Below are positions 36,001 to 39,000 of a stretch of DNA of 48,521 nt, piece by piece (positions within the stretch are counted from its first letter, which is position 1; each line of letters starts with the position of its first letter). The DNA comes from a virus (lineage: Duplodnaviria; Heunggongvirae; Uroviricota; Caudoviricetes). Position numbers: made by a program. Where the stretch lies: IMG/VR virus record IMGVR_UViG_2511231131_000009, positions 1 to 48,521 of that record, one strand, 5' to 3'.

Positions 36001-39000
36001 ATATAGGGCCAAGACCTAAATTCCAGGCACGGCGACAATCTTCTGCCACTCGCTCAATATCATTCGGAGTAAGTAATTCAGCCCCTGGGTGCTCCGGTAT
36101 GTTAACGTCAGGAAATTCGATTTCACCTTCAACAGCAGAAATTATAATATTAAGAATCTCAGCCCTGGCCAATACACTATTAGTCAGCGTTTGAGTCCTG
36201 GACTTCTTACTCCGAAAATGGCAGACATCACTTTCCAGAGCGTATTTTCGTTCAGTAAAAAGAAAACTGGACTTAATCATAAGCGCTGAAGATATTAACT
36301 CAAGACATTGCTCCGATGGCCTGCACCCCTTCTCCAGTTTGCTAACAAATTGCTTTGTCTTGCCAATTTTTTCGGCTAACTCTTCACAAGAAAGCCCAAC
36401 AGCCATTCTCGCTAGTTTGAGCTTATCACCCCGATACTCAGTGAAGTTATTCACCTGATGTTCCATCACTGCTCACATCCAAATCTTTATCCTTCGTACG
36501 CCGACGAAGAGGCACCTTATTAATCTCCGCTTCGTCAGGGAGTGTGTTATAATCAAGAGGCATAAGCGGCATCGATGCTGTAGATTGATGAGAAACTATA
36601 CTAATCTGAGCACCATAAGTATTAAATCCAACAAGAGCTACCTCCCAACGAGGCAGTGTGGACTCTAATTCACCATCGCCCTCTTCGGATAAAAAAGGCT
36701 CAGCTATGACTCGCCATGTAATATCTTGCTCAGCCTCAACATCACCAAACAATGAGAGCTGCTCATACTCTACTTTATTTCGACGCAGACGATGTTTCTT
36801 TTTGGGGTTATTAATGCAATCTTTGGTAAATTGTAGCGGAACTTTATTTAAAGCAACTACATAGTCCACCCCCTTGGAAATCATCTCAAGGCCAGGAATT
36901 GCATCTTCATTTTGAATAAGATGATTTCTGACCCAATCATAAGCCCTTACACCTTCAGACCAGTTGCTGTCTAATGCGTGCTTATGATAGTACAGCTGCT
37001 CAAGTACGTTAGCGATCTCCGCCAACAAGTGGCGAACATAGTTTTCAGCAAGATAAGGTTGAAATTCCCAACAAGGAGCTAACTGATTTTCATTCATTTC
37101 AAGTTTCGCTTTTTTTAGAATTCGCAAACCACATATTTTCGCATTTTTCTATTTTTGTCAACCAGGCTAATGCAAAAACCCGCCGAAGCGGGTTAAGTGC
37201 GGGTGCGTTGAGGATGCCTGGCACATCAGAGGTGGCGGGAGATTACTCCCCCGCCGGGTCTCTTACTCCTCAGGTTCGTAAGCTGTGAAGACAGCGACCT
37301 CCGTCTGGCCGGTTCGGATTCGTACCTCGCAGAGGTCTTTCCTCGTTACCAGTGCCGTCACTATGACGGTTAAACAGATGACGATCAGGGCGATTAACAT
37401 CGCCTTTTGCTGCTTCATAGCCTGCTTCTCCTTGACCTTTTGGTCCGTAAGAGGCTAATCTCTATGTGTCGCATAGATATGGCCTCAGATTAATGTTAAG
37501 CGTCTTGCAGGACGCGTAATGTTAACTGGGGCTTTTCTCTATCTGCCTTTTGGTGTTCATGCCTGAGGCAGATAGCCTCAAGCACCCGCAGCAATTCTAC
37601 TTAACTCCCGTCACCTCGCCAATATAAAATCAATCAGAAAGGCGATCCATAAGAACAATAGCAAGACAATAAATTGCCACTACAGCCGCAATAGCCAGCG
37701 CGCATTTGAGAACCAGCACGATAACCTCCTGTATTGGACGTACACCAGCTCTGATAAATATGAGGCTGCCTCTTTAACTTCGCATTGCGCTACCAATCAA
37801 TAAAATCAGTGATGTTATCCAACCTAATTACAGTAACTTCCCGTCTCAACTGGTTTTTCCAATATATCTCACGAGCGTTTTGTTCACCAGCACCGCTCCA
37901 CTCAATTACTCTTAAAGGCTTAGAGGTTAGGTAAGGTCGAATAAGCAGGTTAAGGTGAATATCGAGACCAGAGTAACCAAACAATATTATTTCTTCTGAT
38001 TCAAATAATGCAAACTGCAAATAATCCCAGTACGTAGAAAGAACATTAGATGCTGCTATAACTGACGGTTTTCTTTTTATATGAGTTAACACTATATGCT
38101 CACTAGGTTCATCTATGTCAAGAGTAAGTTGTGAGCGTGAAAGTTTTAAAACATTTTCATGCTGATTAATAAATAGTGGTGAACCATGCAAGTGCAAATA
38201 ATAACCAAACCTACGATTGTATTTCCGTTCGAGCGCTGCAGAGGAAAATCCGTGGCTTAGCATCCCATCAACTAAAACCCCATCATACCCGTTGAATATA
38301 TCATTATCTATGAATGAATTGTATAATAATTTGTCATAGTTTAATGTCGCGATATGTGAGTGTGTGTTCTTTACAAACTCCACAAGCGCATTTTCGAATC
38401 TTTGTGGCAAACCTTTATCGTAATTATGCAACCTGGTTGCAACTTTGTGAATATAAGTGGCGGTAATTTTGGGGAAGTTTAGTCCATCTTCAGTAAGCCA
38501 ATGCACGTTCCCCTCTCCAATTTGAGCAAGAGCTTTACAATATGTGACAGCCTGGTGAAGGGTATCCAACTCATGTTCTCCTTCTGGTGGACCTTGCCGC
38601 TGAAGACAACGCTCGATAAGTTGCTTGTGGATATCTTTTAAAAAATTGGGGCGATGCCAAATTTCTTCCAACGCTCTGTCTAAGGAGAAGTGAGCAGGAT
38701 CTAAAGCCATACCGAGACCGTTGCCGAATATTATTAATTTTCTTGCCATATAGGGGGACTCATATTGGAATAACGCTGGATAGCGTAGCGCGATACGCTT
38801 AAGTTTAGGATTAATAGACATTCCGTTTGATTACACTCGTTATTACAAACTTGCATGCAAAGAAGCCCAAGCTGTTAGGTAAACAGAGACCGCAGTGGCA
38901 AGATAATCTAGATATAGCCTATAAAATCCAACAACAAATAGCGGCCTGTTTTCTATGACTTTTCTTTTCCCTAAATATCACTTATCTAATAAAATGCAAT

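Follow-up and report, generated by a model that had tools for sequence, protein, structure and literature searches.

How could a SIR2 domain that stands alone sense infection and act on it? Enzymes of the SIR2 type that destroy nicotinamide adenine dinucleotide (NAD) rank with the most common effectors in bacterial immunity, and in every mechanistically understood case they come with a sensor domain or a partner. The question is raised by a gene on the minus strand, at 37790..38821, of the virus record IMGVR_UViG_2511231131_000009 (IMG/VR), of which the whole stretch of 48,521 nucleotides was analyzed and is here called the window. Its longest reading frame, of 343 amino acids with a conserved core of 319, encodes a SIR2-like protein, which is a complete SIR2 domain and nothing else, without a partner gene. 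It belongs to a family of enzymes of about 320 amino acids that occur alone and move as one-gene units on prophages, integron cassettes and chromosomal islets. By analogy with known effectors we consider it on balance probable that the protein would be an autonomous abortive-infection NADase, destroying NAD+ against other phages. The key question is how a SIR2 domain as bare as this one becomes active.

The SIR2 domain and its active site

An earlier note on this DNA had described the reading frame together with four motifs, all of which were found as described and in the order given. The features of the gene and its product, all on the minus strand, are as follows.

37790..38821, minus: SIR2-like gene, longest open reading frame (ORF), 343 amino acids; ATG at 38821, stop at 37790-37792
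37790..38749, minus: conserved family core, 319 amino acids from Met25 (RefSeq form and most homologues)
38750..38821, minus: N-terminal extension of 24 codons, possibly translated, in the enterobacterial prophage lineage only (homology and model)
38705..38734, minus: glycine-rich NAD-binding loop IIFGNGLGMA, residues 30-39, after strand beta-1 (alignment and model)
38363..38683, minus: helical 'small domain' between beta-1 and beta-2, residues 47-153, five helices (secondary structure of the model)
38321..38347, minus: TLNYDKLLY, residues 159-167, with the putative catalytic residues N161 (38339-38341) and D163 (38333-38335) (alignment)
38180..38197, minus: LHLHGS, residues 209-214, with the putative catalytic H212 (38186-38188) (alignment)
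37949..37987, minus: ILFGYSGLDIHLN motif, residues 279-291, common to the SIR2 subunits of SIR2-HerA and including ILFGYSGLD at 279-287 (alignment)

The earlier note had also proposed a SIR2_2/DHS-like fold, to be checked with hidden Markov models of PF13289 and PF02146 and with a structure prediction, and both checks supported it. The protein matched the Pfam family SIR2_2 (PF13289) at E=1e-5 with 26.1 bits versus a cut-off of 24.5 bits, a match that was real but marginal, and in the same search gave no match to the canonical sirtuin family PF02146. PF13289 was likewise matched by 31/31 relatives at E<=0.01, with distant members scoring 20.7-38.2 bits, while no family in NCBIfam or PHROGs matched the protein. 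The AlphaFold2 model, for which 31 aligned sequences were used, was confident (predicted local distance difference test score, pLDDT, 86.5; predicted template modelling score, pTM, 0.86) and had eight beta-strands with a five-helix insert after beta-1. The Rossmann fold, the helical insert after beta-1 and the count of at least seven beta-strands are those by which the immune-type sirtuins (SIR2_2/'SIRim') are recognized. In structural comparisons the SIR2 subunits of SIR2-HerA were the nearest relatives of the modelled protein, followed at lower ranks by ThsA (score 14.9), KomC (14.5), classical sirtuins (10-13.4), Avs5 (about 12) and human FAM118B (11.3), with other DHS-like folds at 8.1 or below.

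The putative catalytic residues N161, D163 and H212 were present and invariant in 37 family sequences down to 31% identity, and in the family alignment the same held for Y162 beside N161 and D163, and for L211 and G213 around H212. The glycine-rich loop, which in the model follows a strand at residues 28-32, had N34 and G35 invariant and G33 and G37 at least 90% conserved in the family down to 31% identity. In the C-terminal motif, G282, D287 and H289 were invariant and N291 was at least 90% conserved. When a broad family profile, reaching down to 31% identity, was searched against PDB sequences, it found PsSIR2 (8w9l) at E=7.5e-5, aligning TLNYD with TTNYD, HLHGS with KLHGS and GYSGxDxHLN with GYSYKDQHIN, and N161/D163/H212 with N163/D165/H212 of PsSIR2; a narrow family profile found nothing relevant among PDB sequences. 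In PsSIR2 these three are the putative catalytic residues, and catalytic-residue mutations abolished defence (PMC11472057). Mutation of the counterparts of H212 in ThsA (H152) and FAM118B (H206) abolished NADase activity, and the catalytic Asn and His by which SIRim proteins are defined, equivalent to N112 and H152 of ThsA, were both conserved here.

CxxC pairs occurred in 0/31 family members, and the SIR2-like protein has two cysteines in all. A Zn/Cys4 module is considered in the SIRim literature to be necessary for binding of acyl-lysine substrates. Judged by sequence, the protein is an immune-type sirtuin and not a deacetylase-type sirtuin, because it has no zinc module; it shows neither the PF02146 match nor the Zn-binding Cys tetrad of the canonical sirtuin deacylases (CobB, SIRT1-7).

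The helical small domain holds an acidic motif, PxGExELDxLH (residues 79-89), in which P79, E82, E84, D86 and L88 were invariant, E82 even down to 31% identity. In PsSIR2, the closest solved relative, the small domain auto-inhibits the NADase pocket and the protein is nearly inactive without HerA (PMC11472057). By analogy, the helical small domain is a candidate regulatory or lid domain.

The start codon has evidence on both sides. The RefSeq coding sequence (WP_000101550.1) begins at Met25, giving 319 amino acids, and most of the best 120 of 795 homologue matches were about 319 amino acids long with a start at the Met25 equivalent, the 24-codon extension being seen only in close prophage relatives. 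Translation of the extension is favoured by a variant of 78% identity from a different prophage, the homology of which to the window starts exactly at the upstream ATG and in which five codons of the extension show synonymous differences alone, two of them CTN/TTG switches of leucine. Against it, Met1 lacks a Shine-Dalgarno sequence while Met25 retains a weakened 'GAG' of the Serratia GGGAG; Shine-Dalgarno-like sequences precede the Met25-type start in short-form homologues, of which the window has only the 'GAG'. The extension had a low pLDDT in the model, at 61-63.

A one-gene module and its spread

The SIR2 gene is carried by a lambdoid prophage as a moron, acquired separately, in a variable slot. 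This slot and its surroundings contain the following features.

37773..39199, no strand: exchangeable cargo module, SIR2 gene plus upstream spacer, in the slot between the Ren-like gene and hok (homology boundaries and step in GC content)
38822..39189, minus: AT-rich upstream spacer, 34.0% GC (composition)
39143-39114, minus: candidate promoter-like site, TTGACA, 18-nt spacer, AAAAAT (promoter scan)
37416-37587, minus: sok antisense RNA (Rfam RF01794, 107.5 bits)
37263-37418, minus: hok toxin (HOK_GEF, E=1.2e-23)
36447-37127, minus: RmrT of RosmerTA (PADLOC, E=6.5e-25)
35363-36469, minus: RmrA of RosmerTA, helix-turn-helix plus M78 peptidase (PADLOC, E=6e-105)

Positions 28790-47822 of the window are collinear with, and 99.96% identical to, a prophage of Escherichia coli O55:H7 CB9615 that is integrated at a tRNA-Ser gene adjoining mtfA. 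The order of genes on the minus strand is cro-like, YdaT, O-like replication gene, Ren-like (DUF977), SIR2, hok/sok, RmrT, RmrA, two small genes, DUF968, RusA and Q, and this order places the SIR2 gene within the 'nin-like' portion of the early-right operon.

The GC content is 39.1% for the SIR2 gene (34.9% at third codon positions) and 34.0% for the 368-nt spacer upstream of it, which together form a low-GC block of 1.4 kb, versus 51.0% for the upstream Ren-like gene, 50.0% for the downstream hok/sok region and 51.0% for the whole window; the AT-rich upstream region and the gene's low GC relative to the phage backbone, as noticed earlier, were thereby confirmed. In related phages without SIR2 (HannyBb, Evi, Rac and others) the homology ends at about 37772 and returns at about 39200, with other cargo in between, and the GC step falls on these same boundaries. 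The flanks of the slot, taken from 37200-39700 of the window, were found in 4,833 of 5,426 complete E. coli genomes, and 46 of the 5,426 had SIR2 in the slot, 30 at at least 99% identity and 16 at about 89%; the carriers include enteropathogenic E. coli (EPEC) O55:H7 and porcine enterotoxigenic E. coli (ETEC) strains. The alternatives included an empty slot, as in BLR(DE3), QueH with or without a methyltransferase, DUF5677, DUF7167 with small ORFs, DUF4014, DUF4406 or, in O157:H7, a trio of alpha/beta-hydrolase, DUF1627 and ATP-binding genes. The Ren-like-to-hok slot is a general cargo hotspot.

The earlier note had placed hok just downstream of the SIR2 gene, correctly, and had missed the RosmerTA defence pair that directly follows hok. 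Since hok/sok is also found in many phages and prophages without SIR2, it was rejected as a functional partner; it is prophage backbone, outside the cargo module. RosmerTA forms a second low-GC insert (about 42% GC) and accompanies SIR2 only in the O55:H7-type prophage; its absence from the other SIR2-carrying prophages makes it an independent module and likewise excluded it as a functional partner. With constant flanks, hok/sok as backbone and RosmerTA confined to the O55:H7-type prophage, the module at 37773-39199 was thus acquired on its own. The separate acquisition that the earlier note had read from GC content now appears as a compositionally foreign insert in a variable slot, as given by the GC step, the homology breaks and the E. 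coli slot survey.

In the variants of about 89% identity the -35 hexamer of the promoter-like site is conserved, and in the 78% variant the entire upstream spacer is unrelated. The spacer also contains a perfect palindrome, TGCAATAcatTATTGCA, at 38995-39011, which was considered as a conserved operator and is probably not one, because it is degraded in the 89% variants. In the swine isolate E. coli K_EC180 an IS481-family transposase lies between hokD and the SIR2 gene (locus L009, 3599-4672).

A search of 1.84 billion representative proteins, with representatives taken at 50% clustering, gave 355 members of the family, 196 of them at E<=1e-30. The family is sharply bounded, with nearly all representatives being single-domain proteins of 310-365 amino acids that match end to end. 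It ranges from Proteobacteria to Chloroflexota and is widely distributed among free-living bacteria of marine and soil habitats (Rhodobacteraceae, Pseudoalteromonas, Pelolinea, Nitrospinota). To survey the surroundings of the homologues, 77 genomic and 18 viral loci were retrieved, and the ORFs lying up to five genes away from a homologue were called and sorted into clusters; among 681 neighbour ORFs from 76 loci there was no conserved partner gene. The earlier note's view of an essentially solitary SIR2 domain, for which it had proposed a survey of gene neighbourhoods, was thereby upheld both within the protein, all of which is one domain, and around it.

The largest neighbour cluster, in 7/76 loci, was an ABC-F ATPase of a Rhodobacteraceae synteny block, and the only recurrent ATPase, of the ABC type, was dismissed as a partner since this is a housekeeping ABC-F found in 5 Rhodobacteraceae loci of one synteny block. 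Immediate neighbours were otherwise housekeeping genes (enolase, LepA, GyrB, RF-1) or genes of mobile elements (integrases, HNH, MvaT-type silencers), with a few defence genes in other loci (SoFic, Dsr1, a type I restriction enzyme, HEC-05, PDC-S31). Two further candidates were discarded: a NAPRTase neighbour in 3 loci of the bulk scan, where the gene at -1 in the Pseudomonas island that was inspected proved to be an integrase instead, and a tRNA-linked island, as tRNA genes lay within 10 kb in only 7/60 loci.

Most family members lie outside prophages, as chromosomal islets or in integron cassettes. An integron cassette of 1,120 bp in Vibrio parahaemolyticus (JARJXM010000008.1; locus L107, 7851-9039) has a 75% homologue as its only ORF and belongs to an array with nine attC-like repeats, an adjacent IntI-type integrase and cassettes of ccdAB and Mrr_cat. 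An Aeromonas homologue stands alone between sucD and a housekeeping gene, and one in Klebsiella is a lone islet among metabolic genes. The 78% variant, in the 343-amino-acid form, lies between tRNA-Met (31-106) and gpD/gpU/tape-measure genes at the end of a P2-like prophage (IMG/VR; locus L097, 1-6853), so that the same cargo is carried by an unrelated type of temperate phage.

Protein identity remains at 60-80% across orders (Escherichia, Vibrio, Chromohalobacter, Pseudoduganella and a Desulfobacteria metagenome-assembled genome). The homologue was also AT-richer than its flanks in 62/67 loci (median -10.3 GC points; Wilcoxon p=3e-12), for instance with 38% versus 63% GC in Aeromonas and 33% versus 57% in Pelolinea, and this held even for diverged copies in high-GC hosts. 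Such AT-richness, combined with the 60-80% identity, suggests that the gene is continually turned over by horizontal transfer, is under selection to stay AT-rich, or both. In Pseudomonas islands and prophages a gene for an MvaT-type xenogeneic silencer is found near the SIR2 homologue in two arrangements (+2 or -1; loci L025, L027 and L059 at about 12195-12692 with an adjacent integrase, and loci L065, L098 and L100 at about 9550-9971). Such neighbours could hint at control by silencing.

Known SIR2 systems and possible function

No PADLOC defence model covers the family, in which the best E-value was 1.6e-13 (PDC-S21). The protein is most like the SIR2 of SIR2-HerA (Nezha; PDB 8w9l, 8yhx, 8j4u, 8sub), a subunit of the same structural type whose PADLOC models it matched at E=6e-5 (best in the family 7e-10), yet it stands apart from that two-gene system: a HerA-type ATPase gene is adjacent neither here nor in any of the 76 related loci, and the SIR2-HerA subunits have 360-400 amino acids versus 319-343 here and only about 15% identity. 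PDC-S21 (PDLC04960/PDLC04961; 336-position model) is a single-gene candidate of similar size and one of the three best-scoring PADLOC model groups. The match to it was weak and partial rather than strong and full-length, with E=8e-6 and about 23 bits over residues 26-230 only, and the scores of about 23-45 bits on 336 positions suggest a related but separate clade; a literature search found no publication on PDC-S21. Other weak PADLOC matches were to the pAgo-associated SIR2 and to the SIR2 of SIR2-HerA.

Systems with recognized sensors also differ. ThsA of Thoeris carries a SLOG/Macro signal-binding domain and needs its partner ThsB, neither of which the SIR2-like protein has, and there were no PADLOC matches for ThsA or ThsB and no TIR neighbours in the loci scanned. 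DSR1 and DSR2 have about 1,000 amino acids with a large C-terminal alpha-solenoid sensor, versus 343 here and 310-365 in the family, and PADLOC gave no Dsr match for the window protein itself. In Avs5, STAND and sensor domains are fused to SIR2, whereas here the SIR2 domain is alone. Human FAM118B and FAM118A (SIRanc), which are vertebrate-specific and work as an A/B pair within Toll-like receptor (TLR) signalling, are structurally far more distant than the SIR2 of SIR2-HerA.

In architecture there is a likeness with AbiH of Lactococcus (about 346 amino acids), which also is one gene with one SIRim domain of about 340 amino acids carried on mobile elements. Its abortive-infection phenotype was experimentally shown, and NAD depletion as its mechanism was proposed, not demonstrated. 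AbiH comes from Gram-positive integrative conjugative elements and is without a solved structure, and AbiH models gave no match at E<=1 in Pfam or PADLOC, any sequence relationship thus being undetectable. The earlier note had held that known SIR2 effectors carry sensors or have partners; this stands for the mechanistically understood cases, but the single-gene AbiH is a precedent that makes a lone SIR2 unusual, not unprecedented. The family is a stand-alone SIRim clade and not a new principle.

If the protein acts as an autonomous abortive-infection NADase, we would expect it to be made at a low level in the lysogen, through expression that starts in its own AT-rich region upstream or comes from read-through. 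At rest it would be inactive, probably with the helical small domain blocking the NAD+ pocket as in PsSIR2, and/or be held down by low expression. Upon infection by another phage, some cue would release the block, probably along with self-assembly into a higher oligomer, a step suggested by analogy with ThsA, Avs5, KomC and FAM118B. The released protein would hydrolyze NAD+, and the loss of NAD+ would halt both infected cell and phage (abortive infection), protecting sister lysogens and hence the prophage. The ecology of the gene is defence-like, with its variable prophage slot, the adjacent RosmerTA, its place at a P2-like prophage end, the defence genes beside some homologues, its AT-richness relative to the flanks and its presence in only 46/5,426 E. 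coli genomes, and chromosomal-integron cassettes are enriched in streamlined defence genes. Should phage defence be its role, the protein would be a small and tractable model for how a bare sirtuin senses infection and spares its host, would bear on AbiH, the mechanism of which has not been known since 1996, and on the human FAM118 sirtuins, and would add an unrecognized defence gene to prophages of EPEC O55:H7 and porcine ETEC.

Several points weigh against this interpretation. Our literature search found no published test of the family, with NADase activity, toxicity and phage resistance being predicted properties; one recent E. coli screen explicitly left out single-gene candidates. Guilt by association is moderate, the neighbours being mostly housekeeping or unknown genes with few matches to defence models, and cargo unrelated to defence, such as QueH, is found in the E. 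coli slot too. A search with tblastn against 50,697 phage genomes, virulent and temperate, gave no homologues. Lying in the early-right operon, the gene may be expressed when its own prophage grows lytically as well, and one DUF4917 protein, a distant relative, was reported as a protein deacetylase (PMC10421069). Finally, a recognizable sensor is absent, the closest solved relative is nearly inactive without HerA, and a whole-length identity of 60-80% across orders is atypical for a recogniser of fast-evolving phage proteins. Because of the missing sensor domain and the very high whole-length conservation, the trigger is the weakest link of the reading we favour.

One way around this would be a sensorless minimal immune sirtuin, with sensing outsourced to gene expression or to a universal cue other than a phage protein, which we regard as unlikely in this specific form. 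At the level of expression, a constitutively active NADase could be kept off by silencing of the H-NS/MvaT type until this is lifted by phage anti-silencing or by shut-off of the host; this version is suggested by a GC content about 10 points below the surroundings in 62/67 genomes and by the MvaT-type neighbours in Pseudomonas islands. With a universal cue, the PxGExELDxLH motif in the helical domain would instead read the cue and drive self-assembly. If either holds, the protein would be the smallest autonomous SIR2 defence module, common to prophages, integrons and chromosomal islets in several phyla.

It is also doubtful, in our view, that the protein is an orphan effector, i.e. not a complete system, requiring an unlinked partner or signal such as a HerA-like ATPase of host or prophage, or a second messenger from a TIR or cyclase. 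The near inactivity of the structurally nearest SIR2 subunits until HerA binds would agree with this, as would the lack of a sensor domain and an invariant acidic motif in the small domain that could serve as a site for ligand or partner. Two Vibrio lineages moreover fuse an N-terminal module of 190-220 amino acids to the same core (P0042, 506 amino acids; P0044, 541 amino acids), and the two modules are homologous to each other (30% identity, E=8.5e-12). This module, however, had no Pfam match, gave no homologues when searched for, and was absent from the window and from each of the 105 loci that were inspected. Next to the homologues in the 76 loci no gene for an ATPase, TIR or cyclase was conserved, and spread as a single-ORF cassette and as lone islets from Proteobacteria to Chloroflexota is hard to square with a specific partner.

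An equally improbable explanation, to our judgement, is a protein-modifying sirtuin, acting as NAD-dependent deacylase or ADP-ribosyltransferase to reprogram proteins of the host, of phages or of a eukaryotic host, as in lysogenic conversion or virulence. It draws on DUF4917 (PF16263), a family of stand-alone SIR2-like proteins of about 300 amino acids that includes SliP of Campylobacter jejuni, reported to be secreted and to deacetylate host histones (PMC10421069). NCBI names some of the relatives 'DUF4917 family protein', and 23/31 matched PF16263 weakly at E<=0.01, with 27.0-30.1 bits versus a cut-off of 28 bits in a 311-position model; the fold is capable of ADP-ribosylation in SirTM sirtuins, and the E. 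coli carriers include pathogens. The window protein itself, on the other hand, had no PF16263 match even at E<=1, and the borderline scores of its relatives make DUF4917 at best a distant sister. The deacetylase activity reported for SliP is at odds with the absence of the zinc module from this family, host-directed effectors make little sense in free-living marine and soil bacteria, SliP itself adjoins a type I restriction gene, and no signal peptide or linkage to a secretion system was seen in the neighbourhoods. Were the protein to modify other proteins after all, it would represent a novel type of enzyme for lysogenic conversion.

Very improbable, lastly, is a role in serving the phage itself, either in the lytic early operon (NAD remodelling or counter-host action) or in selfish addiction, as a toxin-like gene that is kept silent in the prophage, for although the gene occupies a pR-type early operon position between replication genes and Q, adjoins the hok/sok addiction module and shares its slot with phage-benefit cargo of other prophages (QueH, methyltransferases), most members are chromosomal islets or integron cassettes, so that what they do must be independent of the lytic programme of a phage, no conserved small ORF resembling an antitoxin adjoins them and the phage genome collection held no homologue.

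Other features of the window

Outside the region described above, the window contains the following features.

29954-30144: STnc100 small RNA
30224-30470: three tRNA genes
43092-43143: DicF RNA
46463-47488: integrase
47544-47630: tRNA-Ser attachment site
47685 onward: start of the host gene mtfA

Because the integrase, the tRNA-Ser site and mtfA follow each other at its end (46463-48521), the window spans the junction between prophage and host. A further block of low GC content (about 40%) lies at 30500-33000, between the tRNA genes and Q; as mapped from RefSeq it encodes a helix-turn-helix protein, a frameshifted TrmB regulator and a CPBP-family intramembrane protease, which are possible further morons.

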